From an uncultured bacterium (GTDB lineage: Bacteria > Patescibacteriota > Minisyncoccia > UBA6257 > 2-01-FULL-56-20): a stretch of DNA of 64,000 nucleotides. Below are positions 5,074-35,783 of the stretch, piece after piece. The notes under the pieces were generated by a model. It saw only the letters and a program-made list of their open reading frames with translations, was not told the DNA's origin and made no database searches. The DNA is taken from assembly GCA_963719425.1 (NCBI GenBank), contig OY970382.1:813833-877832 (forward strand), read 5' to 3'. Position numbers and translations under genes: made by a program. Position 1 is the first letter of the stretch; each line of letters opens with the position of its first letter.

Positions 5074-6612
5074 TTAAATATCCTCCCGCAGGCGGTAGCT
5101 GAACGCTTCGGCAACGTGCTCTGCGGAGACGCAACCGCTTCCTTCAAGATCGGCAATTGTTCGTGCGACCTTGAGGATGCGGTAATAGCCGCGCGGGGAA
5201 ATGCGGCTTCTCTCAAGCGTTTCCAAAAATTTTTCCGCCTGCGGCTCAAGGCGGATGAGCAACCGTGTTTCCCGCGAGCTCATCTCGGCGTTCGTCGCGA
5301 CATTGAGCCGCCTGAACCGTTCTCGCTGCACGTTCCGCGCCGCTTCAATGCGCTCTCGGATCGCGGGGCTTGCGGGTTCCTGCCGGCCCCCTTTCCGCAA
5401 TTCCTCTATTTTTATCCGCCCAACTTTGATTTGCAGATCAATGCGATCCAAGAGAGGGCCTGAAATTTTTTTCTGATACCTAATCACCTCGTATGCGGCG
5501 CACTTACATTCTTTTTCCGCATCGCCGTAATAGCCGCAGGGACATGGATTCATCGCGGCCACGAGCGCGAACCGCGCCGGGAAAAGGAGACTTTGCTTTG
5601 CGCGCATGACACAGATTGATCCCGATTCCATTGGCTCGCGCAACGCTTCAAGAAGATTTTTCTGAAACTCCGGAAGCTCGTCTAAGAAGAGCACCCCGCG
5701 GTGCGCGAGGCTTATCTCGCCCGGTTTTGGATCCTGGCCGCCGCCGACGAGTGCGGCGATTGATGCGGTTTTATGCGGCGCGCGGAATGGTCGGTGGCGG
5801 ATAAGCTGACCGCGGCTCAGCCCCGCCGCGCTCCAGATTTTCGTGATCTCTATTGCTTCCGGGACCGTGAGTTTTGGCAAGATGCCGGCGAGCGCTTGTG
5901 CGAGCATGCTCTTTCCTACTCCGGGCGGTCCGACCATGAGGAGGTTGTGATTGCCTGCCGCGGCGACCGCGAGCGCGCGCTTCGCGTTTTCTTGTCCGAT
6001 GATTTCCGAAAAATCAGGGAATGTCTTGGTCCCTTCTTTGTGTGGGCTAAGCGGAGCGAGACTTCGCGCATCACACATTTGCCGGCCTTCAAGGATTGCA
6101 ATCGCCTCACTTAGATTTTCCAGCGGAACTATTTTTATCCCGCATATTGCCGCCGCCTCATTCGTGTTTTGTTTCGGGAGAAAAAGATATTTGAAACCCG
6201 CAGCGCGCGCCATTTGCGCAATGTTGAGCGCGCCATTCACGGAGCGCAATCTGCCGTCAAGCGCGAGCTCGCCGACGAAAACTTTATCGCCTATTTCGGT
6301 TCTTTGTATCTGCTTTGTCGCAAACAAATAACCGATGGCGATCGCAAGATCGTAGTGTGATCCCGTTTTCTGTATATCGGCAGGGGCGAGATTGATGGTG
6401 ATTCTTCTATTCTCTCGGTTCGGCGGTTTTGCGCCGCAGTTCTTGATCGCCGAATTAACCCTTTCCTTCGCCTCATTGAGTGCTTTGTCGGCAAGGCCAA
6501 CGATATTGAAAGAATGGAGGCCGACATTAAGGTCAGTCTCCACCTCTATAAGTTTTGCGTTAACGCCTTCAAGTTCAGCGGAGTAAACCTTCGCAAGATT
6601 TTTGGTGGTCAC
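5074..6612 (-). CDS. comM: Mg-chelatase-like AAA+ ATPase ComM/YifB
   Basis: N-terminal Lon-protease-like domain, Walker A GPPGVGKSM, VLFLDELPEF, and a C-terminal ComM domain. Confidence 0.85.
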   Translation of the reverse strand: MTTKNLAKVYSAELEGVNAKLIEVETDLNVGLHSFNIVGLADKALNEAKERVNSAIKNCGAKPPNRENRRITINLAPADIQKTGSHYDLAIAIGYLFATKQIQRTEIGDKVFVGELALDGRLRSVNGALNIAQMARAAGFKYLFLPKQNTNEAAAICGIKIVPLENLSEAIAILEGRQMCDARSLAPLSPHKEGTKTFPDFSEIIGQENAKRALAVAAAGNHNLLMVGPPGVGKSMLAQALAGILPKLTVPEAIEITKIWSAAGLSRGQLIRHRPFRAPHKTASIAALVGGGQDPKPGEISLAHRGVLFLDELPEFQKNLLEALREPMESGSICVMRAKQSLLFPARFALVAAMNPCPCGYYGDAEKECKCAAYEVIRYQKKISGPLLDRIDLQIKVGRIKIEELRKGGRQEPASPAIRERIEAARNVQRERFRRLNVATNAEMSSRETRLLIRLEPQAEKFLETLERSRISPRGYYRILKVARTIADLEGSGCVSAEHVAEAFSYRLREDI

Positions 6613-6664
6613 CCTTCACCAATACCACTTTGCCGATTAAAAACTTATAAAAGGTTTCTTGCGA

Positions 6665-7003
6665 TTATTTCCCGGCTTTGCAATGCTTGCAGAAGCGGGA
6701 TTCCGGGTCCACGTCAAGCACGGCGGTTTCAATCACCCTGCCGCACTGCTCGCAGGCACCATATTTCCCGTTGTAGATTTTCGCAAGTGCGGCATCAATC
6801 TCCGCCAGACGACCCTTCAAGTCCTGGACAACCGCAAGTTGATTGCCGACCTCCTCCACTTCATCCGTTTCTTCTTCAAAATGAGCCGCGTCGCTGCCAA
6901 GGTCAACCGGTTTCTCATTCTGCTTGACTTCGGCGAGGAGAAGTAAGCGTTCTTTTTCAAGCTCTCTTTTGTACTTTTCAAGTTGGTCGGCTTCCATGGT
7001 CAT
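6665..7003 (-). CDS. DksA/TraR-family C4 zinc-finger protein
   Basis: Coiled-coil N-terminus and C-terminal CEQCG...CKHC zinc finger. Confidence 0.6.
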   Translation of the reverse strand: MTMEADQLEKYKRELEKERLLLLAEVKQNEKPVDLGSDAAHFEEETDEVEEVGNQLAVVQDLKGRLAEIDAALAKIYNGKYGACEQCGRVIETAVLDVDPESRFCKHCKAGK

Positions 7004-7097
7004 AACATTCTAGCAGGTCTTCAATCCGGCAATTCAATAATGTTACTATACTGTGCAAATCTTGTTACCGGCAATATTAAAAATTTAATCTTCGTTT

Positions 7098-7160
7098 GCC
7101 GGACTTTTTGCCGGTTTTGTTGCCGGATTACTTGCCGGTTTACATTTTGCCGGATTGCCT
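7098..7160. repeat. Five tightly phased direct TTGCCGG(A/T)TT boxes, with two more CCGGCAAT copies at 7025 and 7068, inside an AT-rich island
   Basis: Read directly: tttgccggacttt / ttgccggtttt / ttgccggatta / ttgccggttta / ttgccggattgcc at 11-15 bp spacing. Confidence 0.5.
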
Positions 7161-7386
7161 GATTAATTATTATTTAATGGAATAACCCGATAAGCTTGAT
7201 TTTACTATCGATAAACAAAATTGTTTTGCAGAATGTTATACGACAAACACATTAAAAATCATATTTATGGCCTTTTTACTTACGCTTATACTCATATGAA
7301 ATTCCTTTTCCCAGCACATTATATTTTTTATAGTGTTTAGCGAATAACAAGTTTAATTATTTGTCCGTAAAAATTTTAGCACAAAA

Positions 7387-7782
7387 GTGTTAAAAAATTA
7401 TAGAAAAGCTAAGATTGGTAAACTGGGCGAAGGTATAGCTTGCGAACATCTTCTTGATAAGGGTTGGAAGGTGTTGGAAAGGAATTACCGAAGGAAATCA
7501 GACGAAATTGACATTATCGCCAAGTCGCCAGATGGGATGCTGATATTTTGCGAGGTAAAATCTTTTGCGACAGGAGAAGATTGGGATGGGGCTAAAGGGC
7601 TTTTACCAGAAGATAATTTGACGGCGGCAAAATTCAGAAGAATAAGTAGGACCTGTGGATTCTTTGCGAGACAACACCCTGAACTTATTGACGAAGACAA
7701 AGGATGGAGGATTGATCTGATCGCCATTGACATAGCAATTGACGGGAAGGCAAGCGATATCCGGCATTACGAGAATATCTAG
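7387..7782 (+). CDS. YraN-family (UPF0102) endonuclease-like protein
   Basis: GxxGExxA...W..LxRN...EIDIIA....LIFCEVK resembles the YraN family. Confidence 0.65.
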   Translation: MLKNYRKAKIGKLGEGIACEHLLDKGWKVLERNYRRKSDEIDIIAKSPDGMLIFCEVKSFATGEDWDGAKGLLPEDNLTAAKFRRISRTCGFFARQHPELIDEDKGWRIDLIAIDIAIDGKASDIRHYENI

Positions 7783-7880
7783 ACCTGTGGGGGGATTCCT
7801 ACGTGGCCTTGACGGGGGATCAAAGTTGGAATACAATAGAGGCATTCGTGGTCCGCTCGTGAGCGGGCCTTTTTAAAGAA

Positions 7881-9137
7881 ATGCTTAACATAAAAGAATT
7901 GTCAAAGGCGTTGAAGCAGGTCGCGGAAGAAAAAGGGCTAAAGCCGGAGGGCGTTCTTGAGGTTATTGAGGCATCCATTGCGGCAGCGTACAAAAGGGAA
8001 TACGGTCAGCGTGGTGAGGTCGTAAAGTGCAAGCTGGACCAAACGACCGGCGAACTGAAATTCTGGCAGATGAAAACGGTGGTTGACGAAAATACTGCGC
8101 GTTTTGTGTCTGATGCAGAAGAAGCAGAGGGTGGAGAAAAAGTAGAGGAGAAGAAAGAGGAGAAGAAGGGACGAGCGGGCCAGGAAGCAGCGGCCGAAGA
8201 AGAGAAGCTACCGCGGTTCAATCCGGAGCGGCACATCACATTGGAAGAGGCGCGGAAGATAGAGAAAGGGGCGCAGGTCGGAGACGAAATCACATTTGAA
8301 CTTGAAACGCACGATGATTTTGGAAGGATCGCAGCCCAGACGGCGAAGCAGGTAATCTTGCAAAAGCTGCGCGAGTCGGAACGCGATTCAATCTTGAACG
8401 AGTGGCGCGGCAAGGAGGGTCAGATCGTAAGCGGCGTCGTGCAGCGGTTTGAACGGGGGAACGTGTTCATTGATCTTGGGCGGACGGTCGGCGTGATGTT
8501 CGCAAACGAATCAATTCCTACGGAGCATTACCGCTCCGGGGAGCGCTTGCGTTTCCTTGTGCTTGCGGTGCAGGAAGACGCTCGGCTTCCGGGGATCATT
8601 CTTTCGCGTTCGCATCCAAGATTTGTGACGGAGCTTTTCCGCATGGAGGTGCCGGAACTCGCAGAGGGCGCGATCGAGATCAAAGCGATTGCGCGCGAGC
8701 CGGGGAATCGCACAAAAGTGGCGGTGTTTTCCAGTACTGAAGGGATTGATCCAGTTGGTGCGCTGGTTGGCCAGCGGGGGACGCGCGTGACGGCAGTGAA
8801 CAATGAGCTGGGCAACGAAAAAATTGACATTGCGGAATGGTCGGAAGATCCGGAGAGGTTTATTGCAAACGCCCTCTCGCCGGCAAAGGTGGAAAGCGTG
8901 GAAATCCTTCCGCGGCGGGAGGCACGCGCATTTGTGCCGGAAAATCAGTTGAGCTTAGCGATTGGCAAAGGCGGACAAAACGTGCGGCTTGCAGCGAAGC
9001 TCACTGGCTGGAAGATTGATGTACGCTCGCAGACGCGGCCGGAGGAAATGCAGGAAGGCGGCGTGGCGGGGACAACGGAAACGGACCAGATTGCGGTTCC
9101 CGAAGAGGACGACGACGAAAAGGACGCTATAATATAA
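7881..9137 (+). CDS. nusA: Transcription termination/antitermination factor NusA, with a Glu/Lys-rich insertion
   Basis: NusA N-terminal domain, S1 and KH domains ([26 protein letters not shown]); an acidic EEKKEEKK insert sits after residue 70. Confidence 0.85.
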
Positions 9138-14705: not shown

Positions 14706-14777
14706 GGGCACGTAGCTCAACGGCAGAGCAGACGTCTTATACACGTCCGGTTCCTGGTTCGAATCCAGGCGTGCCCA
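14706..14777 (+). tRNA. tRNA-Ile with anticodon UAU (decodes AUA)
   Basis: Cloverleaf: GGGCACG acceptor, D-arm TAGCTCAACGGCAGAGC, anticodon stem GACGT/ACGTC with loop CTTATAC, variable CGGTT, T-arm CCTGG-TTCGAAT-CCAGG, discriminator A. Confidence 0.8.
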
Positions 14778-14778
14778 C

Positions 14779-30704: not shown

Positions 30705-30980
30705 TGCCGCGGGGGTGAATCGAACACCCGACGCCAGCCTCTTCCGAAGCTGAATTTGGACTATATCATCTTCCTCTAGGAGGAAGCCGGGCGCTTGTGC
30801 GAGATTATTGTTGGGACTCACTCGCTAGTCTCTACGCCTTCTTCGCAACCCATGCCCTGCGAAGCTTGGTTCGGGATTGTCCTTTTGGAGTTCCCCCGAG
30901 TTCACCCGGTTATTCAATCCGCATTGCTGCGGAAAGCCCCAAAGATTTAGGGCTGCGCTCTACCACTGAGCTACCGCGGC
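30705..30980 (-). tRNA. Split tRNA, read as tRNA-Phe(GAA). 5' exon 30980..30949, 3' exon 30744..30705, with a ~204-nt intervening sequence in the anticodon loop
   Basis: The 5' half (GCCGCGG-TA-GCTC-AGTGGTA-GAGC-G-CAGCC-CT) and 3' half (GAAGA-GGCTG-GCGTC-GGGTG-TTCGATT-CACCC-CCGCGGC-A) are exactly complementary in the acceptor and anticodon stems. The 3' half has no 5' part of its own. Confidence 0.6.
30745..30948 (-). ncRNA. Compact group-I-like intron inserted after U33 of the tRNA
   Basis: 5' exon ...AGCCCU can pair with intron GGGGCU (a P1 helix with a U-G wobble at the splice site). CUUU immediately 5' of that guide can pair with the 3'-exon start GAAG (P10). The intron ends in G, consistent with an omega-G. 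An internal CCAAGCUUCG...GAAGGCGUAGAGACUAG...GAGUCC segment resembles the conserved core of small tRNA group I introns. Confidence 0.5.
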
Positions 30981-31024
30981 GTGAACAAACCCGCATTCAG
31001 AATATACAATTAAAAGAAATAAGT

Positions 31025-31084
31025 AAACGGTGTAGGCCTTCGGCCGAACTCGTCTGCGCGCGAGGACAAAGGCCTACACCGTTT
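31025..31084 (-). terminator. rpsA terminator: 14-bp stem (aaacggtgtaggcc / ggcctacaccgttt) with a 32-nt loop, followed on the minus strand by a U-rich tract
   Basis: Read directly. The loop carries the 31-nt motif that is also found upstream of rpsA. Confidence 0.5.
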
Positions 31085-32168
31085 ACGCCTTCTTCACCTT
31101 CAGCGTGATCCTTCTTTCTTCTGGCTTCACGGAATCAATAACAAACTGGTACGACTGTCCGATGGCGAGCGCTTTTTTCATCTCGTCTTGTCCGCCGAAC
31201 TCGGAGATGTGTACCATGCCCTGAAGGTCTCCTGCGAGCGCGACGATGGCGCCGAAGGGATTGAACTTGTACACACGGCCTTCCACGGTGGCGCCGGGCT
31301 TCATGGTGTCACCGAGCTTCGCCCACGGATCTTCTTTGAGCGCCTTAAGGGAGAGAAACACACGGCCTTCTTTTATGTCCACGATTTTTGCCTTTAGTTG
31401 GTCGTTCACCGTTACGAGTTCTTTTGGATTGTCTATCAACTTGTAGTCCAGCTCGGAAATGTGGATCATGCCCTCGATCTGCGGATTACCCACGAAGCGG
31501 ACGAAGACGCCAAAGTCGGCGACGCCCGAGACGATGCAATCAACATCCTGCCCCACCGCATAAGCGGCAAGCAGTTCCTTCACGTTCGCCGAAAGTACTT
31601 CGCGCTCGGAAACGATGATCTTGTTGCTCCGCGGATTCACGTCAATGATCTTCACGGAAAGCTCCTGTCCAATAAATTTCTTCAGCTCTTCCGCGATTTT
31701 CACGCGGTCGCCGTCCGGGACTTTCGGATAGTGTTCAAGCGAGAGTTGGGAAACAGGAAGGAAGGATTTCAGTTCTTCGGAGACCACAGCCATCAGCCCA
31801 CCGGCATTCGCGCCGACGATTTTCGCTTTCACGACCTCGCCGACTTCCGCGAGATCTTTCGCCTGTTGCCAAAGCTTTTGCTTGCCTGCTTCGGATAGCG
31901 AAAGTTCAATATTGCCCTCTTCGCCGTCCAGTGCGATGATTTTCGCATTGAGCTTGCCGTCGGGATTTAGGTTGCGCAGCGCCTCCCGCGCGTTCTGAAA
32001 TTCTATGCCATAGACGATGCCGGTGCCGAAGCGGCCCATGTCAAAATAGGCCTTGCGGGAAAGCTTTTTGATGAGCGTGACTTCCACAACCGTGCCTTCT
32101 TTTGGCCAATCGGCCGCCGAAAGCTCGGTCTTCAGGAACTGCGCGATGTTCGCGTCCGTTTGAGGCAT
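31083..32168 (-). CDS. rpsA: 30S ribosomal protein S1-like protein with four S1 domains
   Basis: Repeated S1-domain pattern (G.V....V..I...G.FV.....G..H.SE). Confidence 0.8.
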   Translation of the reverse strand: MPQTDANIAQFLKTELSAADWPKEGTVVEVTLIKKLSRKAYFDMGRFGTGIVYGIEFQNAREALRNLNPDGKLNAKIIALDGEEGNIELSLSEAGKQKLWQQAKDLAEVGEVVKAKIVGANAGGLMAVVSEELKSFLPVSQLSLEHYPKVPDGDRVKIAEELKKFIGQELSVKIIDVNPRSNKIIVSEREVLSANVKELLAAYAVGQDVDCIVSGVADFGVFVRFVGNPQIEGMIHISELDYKLIDNPKELVTVNDQLKAKIVDIKEGRVFLSLKALKEDPWAKLGDTMKPGATVEGRVYKFNPFGAIVALAGDLQGMVHISEFGGQDEMKKALAIGQSYQFVIDSVKPEERRITLKVKKA

Positions 32169-33332: not shown

Positions 33333-35783
33333 ATGGCAAAGCTGGAAAAAAGGGAAATTACAAAAGAGCTTAGCGAGTCATACTTGGACTACGCGATGTC
33401 GGTCATCGTCGCGCGGGCGCTGCCCGATGTGCGCGATGGCTTGAAGCCGGTGCAACGGCGGATTCTTTGGGACATGTGGGAATCGGGACTCACGCACCTT
33501 GCAAAGTTCAGGAAGTCGGCAACCGTGGTGGGTGACACGATGTCCAAGTATCACCCGCACGGCGACATGGCGATCTACGATACCCTCGTGCGCCTCGCGC
33601 AGGATTTTTCGCTCCGCTACCCGCTCGTGCACGGGCAGGGGAATTTTGGTTCGGTGGACGGCGACCCGCCGGCGGCGCACCGCTACACGGAGGCGAAGCT
33701 TTCGCGGATCACCGAGGAGGTGCTTGCGGATATTGAAAAAGAAACGGTTGATTGGGCGCCGAATTACGATGGGACGAGGAACGAGCCGCGCGTGCTTCCC
33801 GCGAAACTCCCCAATCTTCTTTTGAACGGGACGCTCGGCATCGCGGTGGGGATGGCGACGAGCATTCCCACGCACAACCTAAACGAGATCGCGGACGCCA
33901 TTCTTTATCTTGCGGACAATCCCGACGCGACAAGCGAGGACCTTTTACAATTTGTGAAGGGGCCGGATTTTCCGACGGGCGGCATCATCTATGACGCGAA
34001 GGCGATACGCGAAGCGTACGTGTCCGGACGCGGCGCGGTTCTCACGCGTGCGAAAACGGAGATCGTGGAGAACAAGGCCGGCAAGCAGTTTGACATTGTG
34101 GTGACGGAGATTCCGTACCAGGTAAATAAGGCCGAACTCATAAAGACGATCGCCGAGCTCGCGCAGGAAAAGAAGATAGAAGGCATCCGCGACCTCCGCG
34201 ACGAGTCCGATCGCGAGGGGATGCGCATCGTGATTGAACTCAAGAACGACGTGGTACCCCAGAAGATTCTAAACTGGCTCTACAAGCACACCGATCTTGA
34301 AAAGAATTTCAACATGAACATGACCGCGCTCGTTGCCAATGCGGACGGTGGCAACGGCGGCCTTGAGCCGCGACTCTTGTCGTTGCGCGACATCCTTGCC
34401 GAGTATCTCGCGTATCGGAAGGAGGTGGTGCGGCGGCGGACACAGTTTGACCTCAAGAAGGCGCAGGAGCGCGCCCATATTTTGGAAGGTCTTGCGAAAG
34501 CACTTGACGCGATTGATCGCGTGATCGCAACGATCAAGAAATCGAAGGATAAAGAAGAAGCGCATGCGAACCTCATGAAACAATTTAAGTTCACCGATAT
34601 CCAGGCGACGGCGATCTTGGAGATGCGGCTCCAGACGCTCGCCGCGCTTGAGCACCAAAAGATAGACGCGGAACTCACGGAGAAAAAAGCGCTCATTGAA
34701 GAACTGACACTTATTTTGAAGAGCCCGGCACGGATATTAAAAATTATCAAAGACGAAATCCGCGAACTCAAAGAAAAATACGGCGACGAGCGGAGGACAC
34801 AGGTCATTGCGCACGCCGTTGCGGCGATGAGCGATGAAGATTTGATCAACGACGAGGATGCAATCGTGACGGTTTCGGGCGGCGGGTACATCAAGCGGCT
34901 GCCGCCGAGCACTTTTAAAGTGCAAAAACGCGGCGGCAAGGGACTCATTGGCTCCGAAGTGGCCGACGAGGATTTCCTTTCGCATTTCTTCAGCGCGCGG
35001 ACGCACGACAACGTTTTATTCTTCACGAACCGCGGGCGCGCGTTCCAAACGAAGGTCTACGAGATTCCGCAGGCGACGCGCACGTCAAAAGGCAAGGCCA
35101 TCCAGAACTTTTTGGAACTGCCGGCTGACGAAACCGTGAGCGCGATCGTGAACTACTCCTCGAGAGGTCCAAAACGCGCAGAGAAAAAATATCTGATGTT
35201 GGTTACAAAACGGGGGGTGATCAAAAAGTCGCCGCTTGAGGATTTTGAAAATATCCGCCGCACTGGCATCATTGCGATTAAGCTCAAAAAAGGAGATCAG
35301 CTCAAGTGGGCACGGCTCACGGGCGGTACGGACCAGGTGATCCTCGTGACGCGCCAGGGACAGTCCATCCGCTTTGATGAAAAACAGGTGCGTTCCATGG
35401 GGCGGGCCGCGGCGGGCGTCCGCGCGATCAGATTGAAGAAACAGAACGACGAGGTCGCGGGCTTTGCTATAATCAAGGGAGGAGAAGCGAAACTCCTTGT
35501 GGTCATGGAGAACGGTTTCGCGAAGCAGACGCCGCTCAAGGAATATAAGACGCAGAGCCGAGGCGGATCGGGCGTGAAGACCGCGGAGATCACGGCGAAG
35601 ACCGGGTCCCTGACCTCCGCGCACGTTGTGACGGAAGAAAAGGAGGTCTTCGCGCTTTCGGCGAAAGGGCAGATGATCCGCACCGAGCTCAAGGCGGTGC
35701 GCACGACCGGGCGCTCGGCGCAGGGCGTGCGCATCATGAATCTGAAGGGCGGTGACCGGTTGGCTGGGACAGTGGTGATCTAG
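33333..35783 (+). CDS. gyrA: DNA gyrase subunit A
   Basis: Active-site region ...[11 protein letters not shown]..., GyrA-box-like C-terminal beta-pinwheel repeats; 816 aa. Confidence 0.9.

Follow-up and report, generated by a model that had tools for sequence, protein, structure and literature searches.

A predicted group I intron divides the anticodon loop of a tRNA-Phe(GAA) gene in a Patescibacteria bacterium

Results

Anatomy and detection of a split tRNA-Phe gene

We analyzed a 64,000-nucleotide (nt) stretch of DNA, hereafter called the window, from the genome of an uncultured bacterium of the Patescibacteria, or candidate phyla radiation (CPR) (contig OY970382.1, positions 813,833 to 877,832), and describe a tRNA-Phe(GAA) gene that is encoded in two parts on its minus strand. 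Coordinates below are window positions, and all elements of the precursor RNA lie on the minus strand. Exon 1 (30980-30949; GCCGCGGUAGCUCAGUGGUAGAGCGCAGCCCU) comprises the 5' strand of the acceptor stem, the D arm, the 5' strand of the anticodon stem, C32, and U33. Exon 2 (30744-30705; GAAGAGGCUG...CCGCGGCA) comprises the anticodon GAA, G37, A38, the 3' strand of the anticodon stem, the variable loop, the T arm, the 3' strand of the acceptor stem, and A73; CCA is absent from its encoded 3' end. A group I intron of 204 nt (30948-30745), which starts with AAAUCUUUGGGGCU and ends with CAGCUUCG, separates the two at tRNA positions 33/34. A preliminary description, made from the letters of the sequence, had proposed this arrangement, and the exon halves, the end of exon 1 at U33, and the length of the intron are correct to the base. 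Taking the evidence below together, we put at roughly 90% the probability that this is the tRNA-Phe gene of a CPR bacterium and that its U33 and G34 are kept apart by a group I intron that lacks an open reading frame (ORF), is removed to give a working tRNA, and is optional among relatives.

The joined exons form a canonical 73-nt tRNA-Phe(GAA) cloverleaf with the discriminator base A73, as judged by ARAGORN. The predicted ligated junction joins GAGCGCAGCCCU to GAAGAGGCUGGCGUC, so that the ligated product would read ...GCAGCCCU followed directly by GAAGAGGCUG..., and the predicted splicing product carries the Phe anticodon that had been expected of it. Position 37 of this tRNA-Phe (window 30741) is G; A37 is the usual base in bacterial tRNA-Phe.

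ARAGORN detects the gene only when introns are allowed for. Without the intron search, ARAGORN called no tRNA at 30705-30980 and seven other tRNAs in the window; with it, the program reported tRNA-Phe(gaa) i(33,204) at the locus. The Rfam family RF00028 (Intron_gpI) matched positions 30735-30958 over model positions 1-253 of 253, with a score of 61.1 bits against a gathering score of 50 (E=4.6e-13 for the 64-kb window and 2.9e-15 locally), and was the sole non-tRNA family over threshold in the window. A search with this Rfam family had been recommended in the preliminary description, and its outcome bore that description out. The fold of the pre-tRNA was 4.8 standard deviations better than those of dinucleotide shuffles. 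Standard tRNA finders miss the gene, and therefore the genome would wrongly seem to lack tRNA-Phe; the same annotation pitfall has already been reported for tRNA-Asn and tRNA-Asp in Patescibacteria.

Alternative splice boundaries were checked because published tools can misplace the boundaries of CPR tRNA introns by 2 nt. The boundary at 33/34 is the only placement that combines a U immediately before the 5' splice site (U-1), a terminal intron guanosine (omega-G), and a 7-nt anticodon loop. When the boundary is shifted by +1, -1, or -2, position -1 becomes A, C, or C and the intron ends in G, C, or U, respectively, and the shifted boundaries also fail the covariation of the P1 and P10 pairings described below. 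With regard to coding capacity, no homing endonuclease was found among the ORFs of the intron, which reach at most 43 amino acids on the gene strand (the longest overlapping same-strand ORFs are 28 to 43 amino acids), and no maturase-like ORF lies inside or beside the intron.

A family of homologous introns with covariation across exons and intron

Homologues were collected by a pattern scan for the P7 and J8/7 core together with the start of exon 2, run over one genome per species in 185,579 species. The scan returned 65 loci, almost all of them from metagenome-assembled genomes (MAGs) of Patescibacteria, and 31 of the 65 were tRNA-Phe(GAA) genes split at the same place by introns of 198 to 231 nt. 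These 31 sequences and that of the window were aligned with MAFFT, without reference to structure (alignment A1), and pairs were counted for the structure written from the window sequence; all covariation counts given here refer to this 32-sequence alignment. Over the whole precursor, 93.8% of cells can pair, compared with 38 to 50% when partners are slid by 1 to 3 columns. Compensatory change was observed in 44 of 79 pairs, and none of 500 shuffles reached any of these measures. All four tRNA stems are 98 to 100% paired (D and acceptor stems, 100%). The preliminary description had noted that the acceptor and anticodon stems pair across the two halves; in the family, the two strands of the anticodon stem, separated by about 200 nt, are 98% paired and covary in 5 of 5 pairs. 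RNAalifold, given no structure, recovered P1, P2, P3, P4, P6, P7.1, and P8. U-1 and omega-G occur in every family member (32/32 each). This covariation pattern is the one expected for a working ribozyme within a working tRNA gene, and pairing that covaries across both exons and the intron excludes the possibility that the two halves are unrelated fragments.

The intron-aware mode of ARAGORN (-i) mislabels some loci of this family: L003 was called Pro(ggg) and L020 was called Leu(caa), and at L009 the program displaced the boundary and gave Phe(aaa). Their sequences identify all three as tRNA-Phe(GAA) genes split at 33/34, and boundary errors of the same kind are found in the literature for tRNA-Asn and tRNA-Asp.

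The core pattern also matches introns that are apparently located in CPR rRNA genes. These comprise loci at the 3' end of 16S genes (L018, L023, L044, L046, L049, L055, L060, L062, and L063) and 23S-like loci (L040, L042, L052, L053, and L065), with further loci L015 and L064; the flanks of these putative rRNA-gene introns are GAACAAGG...GGAUCACCUCCUU or GCGUGAGACAGGUUGGUCUC. A scan of viral contigs (IMG/VR) with the same pattern gave 11 matches (L066-L076), none of them in tRNA-Phe.

The splice-site helices and the catalytic core

The 5' splice site lies in helix P1 (30935-30954), where exon bases AGCCCU (30954-30949) pair with the internal guide GGGGCU (30940-30935) and U33 forms a wobble pair with G. 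This pairing had been proposed in the preliminary description and is conserved throughout the family: the U.G pair at the splice site is present in 32 of 32 sequences, and the four pairs nearest to the splice site can form in all sequences, with compensatory exchanges (CG/GC, CG/AU, and CG/UA). P1 is extended by the first three intron bases (AAA), which pair with UUU of the guide. The extension pair covaries (AU in 16 sequences and GC in 11), and RNAalifold detected this covariation between the first intron base and the guide base that would become the partner of G34. The adjoining guide segment CUUU (30941-30944) pairs with the first four bases of exon 2, GAAG (30744-30741), and gives the P10 helix that had also been predicted. 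Its four pairs are 100% paired, with the guide C opposite G37 in 28 sequences and U opposite A37 in 4. Thus position 37 of the tRNA (A1 column 317) is G in 28 of 32 sequences and A in 4 of 32, and the intron guide tracks the base at this tRNA modification site. The intron ends, as had been noted, in G (30745).

P2 (30919-30932) is a hairpin with a GNRA loop (CCGCA-GCAA-UGCGG) that is 98% paired and covaries in 5 of 5 pairs. The P3 5' strand, CCGGGUG (30903-30909), pairs with the 3' strand CGCCCGG (30793-30787); P3 is 100% paired and contains two covarying pairs. P4 (UCGGG/CCCGA; 30870-30900) covaries and encloses a short P5 hairpin (UCC-AAAA-GGA), the length of which differs between homologues. 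P6 and P6a (30837-30869) consist of CC..GG followed by CUUCGCA/UGCGAAG, and all seven P6a pairs covary (96% paired). P8 (30770-30786) is a covarying hairpin, CUUCCUC-CUA-GAGGAAG. P7 is the conserved guanosine-binding helix of group I introns. Its 5' strand, GACUA (30826-30830, within GUAGAGACUAG), agrees with the Rfam consensus AGACUA, and its 3' strand, UAGUC (30759-30763, in GAUAUAGUCC and within the J8/7-P7 segment GAUGAUAUAGUCC), agrees with the Rfam consensus AAGAUAUAGUC; both strands are invariant in 32 of 32 sequences. The preliminary description had taken a GAGUCC motif as part of the core, which was mistaken: GAGUCC sits in the loop of a separate hairpin (30799-30825), and the real 3' strand of P7 is the UAGUC at 30763-30759.

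An additional hairpin between P7 and P3

That separate hairpin, which we call P7.1-like, lies between P7 and the 3' strand of P3 (P3') at 30799-30825 and has a stem of GCGAG/CUCGC and a 17-nt loop, UGAGUCCCAACAAUAAU. Four of the five stem pairs covary and the loop is near-invariant among homologues. At this hairpin, the RF00028 alignment needs a 30-nt insertion between P7 and P3'. In 29 members the region forms one covarying hairpin; in the divergent loci L017, L056, and L026 it forms two small hairpins.

Extra helices (P7.1/P7.2) between P7 and P3' are a hallmark of subgroup IA in the classification of Michel and Westhof. In subgroup IC3, P3' follows P7 directly, without P7.1/P7.2, and a P9 hairpin is present. 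The preliminary description had likened the intron to the Azoarcus tRNA-Ile intron, and an Azoarcus-type IC3 intron would indeed be of similar size and have a core (AAYUCGGGG..CCCGARCCAAGC..GAAGGYGUAGAGACUA) very like the one seen here. Nevertheless, the conserved 27-nt hairpin between P7 and P3' is foreign to IC3, and the intron ends 13 nt after P7 without a P9. In global alignments, the intron shares 149 identities, the insertion included, with an IA1-labeled tRNA-Asn intron versus 123 to 131 with IC3 fMet and Leu introns; alignment extends over most of the intron with Nitrospirota tRNA-Asn introns carrying the IA1 label and is less complete with the IC3 or IA3 examples. In a published covariance-model analysis, none of the Patescibacteria tRNA introns was classified as IC (PMC13011429). 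The likeness to Azoarcus therefore stands for the P3-P4-P6-P7 core and fails for the whole intron, which has the extra hairpin, lacks P9, and aligns in an IA1-like manner; for Azoarcus, this comparison rests on the IC3 tRNA introns in the supplement of PMC13011429 and on established features of the subgroup. Membership in IC3 is thus very improbable, and we infer that the intron is IA1-like.

The loop of P6a opens with GGG (30857-30855), and the P7.1 loop contains CCC (30815-30813), which makes a kissing contact between the two loops a candidate. Compatible double changes were seen in L009 (GAG/CUC), L020 (GGA/UCC), and L011 (GGU/GCC), and the GGG and CCC motifs are missing together in L017, L056, and L026. 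This evidence is thin and modestly suggests a loop-loop contact (L6a-L7.1) in the Phe 33/34 intron family.

A predicted tail helix with exon 2 in place of P9

In the minimum-free-energy fold, the 3' splice site lies in a hairpin (30735-30752) in which the intron tail CAGCUUC (30752-30746) pairs with G37-G43 of exon 2, GAGGCUG (30741-30735). The hairpin has 7 bp, its GGAA loop holds omega-G (30745) and the anticodon GAA, and it occupies the position of P9 in other introns. The RF00028 match extends 10 nt into exon 2 because Rfam aligns its terminal hairpin to this tail helix. A P9 hairpin is missing from 28 of the 32 family members, including that of the window, and only about 13 nt follow P7 in these introns. 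In fixed alignment columns, 5 of 6 pairs of the tail hairpin covary, and the tail tracks the exon over 11 different anticodon-stem sequences. Tail pairing averaged -8.3 kcal/mol with the intron's own exon versus -3.6 kcal/mol with mismatched exons, and the own exon was better in 28 of 28 cases, a count that comes from related sequences and is not a probability. The four members with an internal GNRA-capped P9 show no tail-exon complementarity, and all other CPR introns in the pattern scan, in other tRNA genes and in 16S and 23S genes, have a normal GNRA-capped P9. Pairing of the tail with the internal guide was considered as an alternative partner and rejected, being weaker than pairing with exon 2 in 27 of the 28 members.

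In the anticodon stem, the 5' strand is engaged by P1 and the 3' strand by the tail, and therefore the precursor cannot form this stem. As a tentative proposal, to which we give somewhat less than even odds, a helix whose 3' strand (tRNA positions 37 to 43) is supplied by the exon may have taken the place of the P9 of an ancestral CPR intron. Splicing would then be a four-strand exchange, in which P1 and the tail helix give way to the anticodon stem and free intron, driven by formation of that stem. Such an exchange would be the converse of the situation in the Anabaena tRNA-Leu intron, which is reported to need exon pairing in an intact anticodon stem. In a literature search of limited extent, we found no description of a P9 surrogate completed by an exon. 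The tail:3'-exon pairing in P9-less introns and the possible L6a-L7.1 contact may be new structural details.

The loss of P9 also bears on whether the intron acts alone. P9 is a peripheral element that stabilizes other small group I introns. It could be argued that this is a genuine group I intron that is not autonomous in the cell and, having lost P9, needs a protein cofactor or an RNA chaperone. The 28 of 32 members with a 13-nt tail and no P9 are consistent with that possibility, as is the retention of a GNRA-capped P9 by the other CPR introns in the scan that have the same core. On the other hand, the P7.1 hairpin, the possible L6a-L7.1 contact, and the tail-exon helix resemble RNA-only replacements of peripheral contacts, no ORF of the maturase kind is at hand, and related CPR tRNA introns, those of tRNA-Asn and tRNA-Asp, self-splice in vitro according to PMC13011429. 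A dependence on cofactors is thus rather unlikely, and the intron may act on its own.

A model for splicing

By analogy with the general group I mechanism, which supplies each chemical step, splicing would proceed as follows. Transcription from upstream of 30980 would produce a 276-nt precursor. P1 and its extension would form first, placing the guide GGGGCU on exon bases 28 to 33 with U33.G at the cleavage site. The core would then fold, with P7.1 and possibly the L6a-L7.1 contact serving as peripheral braces, and the tail would pair with exon 2 once this had been transcribed. A free guanosine bound in P7 would attack after U33, and the guide CUUU would exchange the first bases of the intron for exon 2 bases 34 to 37, forming P10. 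The top of the tail hairpin would open and G30745 would enter the G site, whereupon the 3'-OH of U33 would attack after G30745 and join the exons with an anticodon loop of CU-GAA-GA. The released exon strands would then zip into the anticodon stem, a step that would be possible only after ligation.

Sequestration of omega-G and the anticodon in the 3'-splice-site hairpin could make the second step conditional, and this raises the question of a regulatory role. The intron might act as a gate, whereby the amount of the only tRNA-Phe in the cell would depend on splicing efficiency and thus on GTP, Mg2+, or temperature, an idea that is compatible with removal of the intron to give a working tRNA. 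Nakagawa et al. (PMC13011429) have proposed that RNA-based regulation could explain why introns persist in reduced genomes. Close relatives that have no intron at the same locus argue against an indispensable role, however, and we regard a regulatory gate as quite unlikely.

Uninterrupted alleles and the genomic neighborhood

The exact 27-nt ligated-exon junction is contiguous in at least 120 metagenome contigs, so that the predicted product exists elsewhere as an uninterrupted sequence. Among the matches listed, 49 were full-length tRNA-Phe genes 92 to 100% identical to the spliced product of the window. A short gene for a ribosomal protein S1-like protein of 361 amino acids (31083-32168, minus strand) lies directly upstream of tRNA-Phe, and gyrA (33333-35783) is a neighboring gene; the order gyrA, S1, tRNA-Phe is syntenic in relatives. 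Among the matches listed, intron-less tRNA-Phe genes lie directly 3' of S1 genes that are 81 to 86% identical to that of the window in four loci, L120 (5315-5484), L115 (1852-2021), L081 (2865-3034), and L118 (1294-1463). These empty-site alleles are 94 to 99% identical to the spliced product, and L115 also has the same reverse-strand tRNA-Pro alongside. The intron is therefore optional, as close relatives carry an uninterrupted gene at the same locus.

The S1 genes of intron carriers are 94% (L041), 82% (L021), 81% (L024), and 79% (L014) identical to that of the window. By S1 identity, which is a crude measure, carriers and non-carriers are interleaved, and this implies repeated gain or precise loss of the intron despite the lack of room for a homing endonuclease. 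The closest locus, L041 (OY970175.1, an 898,885-bp MAG chromosome), has the same gene order, with protein identities of 97% for gyrA and 94% for S1; the close relative L024 is labeled Candidatus Paceibacterota.

The occurrence of intron-less tRNA-Phe genes in relatives, together with a view limited to 64 kb of the genome, could also be taken to mean that the two halves are decaying remnants of a pseudogene and that a functional tRNA-Phe lies elsewhere. Against this, exons and ribozyme helices have been kept by compensatory changes over 32 species-level genomes, and the same S1-adjacent locus is where relatives hold their tRNA-Phe. Furthermore, a complete Doudnabacteria genome with a homologous intron (GCA_016699995.1) has a tRNA-Phe count of 1 in the data of PMC13011429. 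The pseudogene explanation is strongly disfavored, and we would be most surprised if it were correct.

A phage origin of the window, suggested by its scattered tRNAs, was rejected, as cellular genes argue otherwise: gyrA and S1 are accompanied by the housekeeping genes glyA, folD, and dcd. None of 50,697 phage records matched the locus in a BLAST search. An exact-protein look-up found no identical entry on record for the S1 protein.

Between S1 and tRNA-Phe there is a long inverted repeat (31012-31086, minus strand), whose 18-bp stem (GUAAACGGUGUAGGCCUU/AAGGCCUACACCGUUUAC) encloses a loop of 28 nt. The repeat overlaps the stop codon of S1, has UUAUUUCUUUU after it, and is likely to be a terminator that separates S1 from tRNA-Phe; a simple terminator scan missed it because the loop is long. 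Two further features of the window were observed. A tRNA-Ile with the anticodon UAU lies at 14706-14778 on the plus strand (ARAGORN "tat"; Rfam tRNA, 69.2 bits). Most bacteria read AUA with a CAU tRNA modified by TilS, and a UAU tRNA-Ile is unusual; it may reflect a reduced set of modifications in CPR bacteria. The GC content is 0.447 at positions 6001-8000, compared with about 0.52 to 0.58 in the remaining window.

Discussion

We have described a tRNA-Phe(GAA) gene of a CPR bacterium that is interrupted at 33/34 by an ORF-less group I intron, predicted to be a ribozyme. Four points weigh against this interpretation. The invariance of P7 makes that helix uninformative by covariation. ARAGORN found no second tRNA-Phe within the 64-kb window, in agreement with the claim that this is the only one there, but a second, intact copy may lie in the rest of the genome. 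The splicing assays in PMC13011429 concern the Asn and Asp introns only and include no tRNA-Phe member. Finally, with P9 lost, the intron might splice efficiently only with the help of a protein or at high Mg2+. Set against these are the RF00028 match, the ARAGORN prediction, and the covariation in the 32-sequence family, which agree on a 204-nt group I intron in the anticodon loop.

The Phe 33/34 intron type is already catalogued in Patescibacteria, and the intron of the window is a further member. The number of bacterial tRNA settings known for group I introns had been raised from 4 to 21 (Williams 2020, bioRxiv 10.1101/2020.01.27.920355), and our results leave unchanged the broader view of CPR tRNA genes as common hosts of group I introns. 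What this work contributes is a well-supported 32-member alignment of the Phe 33/34 intron family. It also documents an intron that is optional among close relatives despite having no homing endonuclease gene, and a helix between the tail and the 3' exon that would be an unusual route to a 3'-terminal domain in place of P9.

The closest known system is the Phe(GAA) 33/34 intron tabulated for the Doudnabacteria genome GCA_016699995.1 (Nakagawa et al. 2026, mSystems, PMC13011429), where it appears as a computational listing without discussion of its structure. It interrupts the same tRNA at the same insertion site, has U-1 and omega-G, is clearly homologous to the intron of the window, and is nearly identical to locus L045. 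Its architecture is also the same, with the guide CUUCGGGC, the P7.1 loop GUGAGCCCAACAAUAA, the segment GAUGAUAUAGUCC, and a short tail (GACGCAG) with complementarity to the exon sequence GCGUC. Its host, however, belongs to another CPR class, and its anticodon stem has another sequence, with corresponding differences in the guide and tail.

The introns at 35/36 of tRNA-Asn and tRNA-Asp in Patescibacteria and Nitrospirota, which carry the IA1 label, share the same core and the same insertion between P7 and P3' (AGACUAG-hairpin-ACAAGCGCCCG). They are mostly ORF-less and have the same phylum-level distribution. However, they are inserted two bases further 3' and have a normal GNRA-capped P9, whereas the intron of the window has a tail that pairs with the exon.

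Another tRNA-Phe(GAA) intron, labeled IA3 in PMC13011429, is found in the Elusimicrobiota genome GCA_023213235.1. It also lies in the anticodon loop but differs in its site (31/32, before C32), its length (246 nt), and its subgroup label, and alignment with the intron of the window revealed no close sequence relationship beyond the generic core.

The IC3 introns of Azoarcus tRNA-Ile, cyanobacterial and plastid tRNA-Leu(UAA), and cyanobacterial tRNA-fMet are likewise small, ORF-less, and located in the anticodon loop, and the fMet intron occupies the same 33/34 site. They share with the intron of the window the U.G pair at the 5' splice site, P10, omega-G, and a very similar P3-P4-P6-P7 core. 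They differ in having P9 and no P7.1 element. Furthermore, unlike in these IC3 introns, P1 and the predicted tail helix of the tRNA-Phe intron are mutually exclusive with the anticodon stem.

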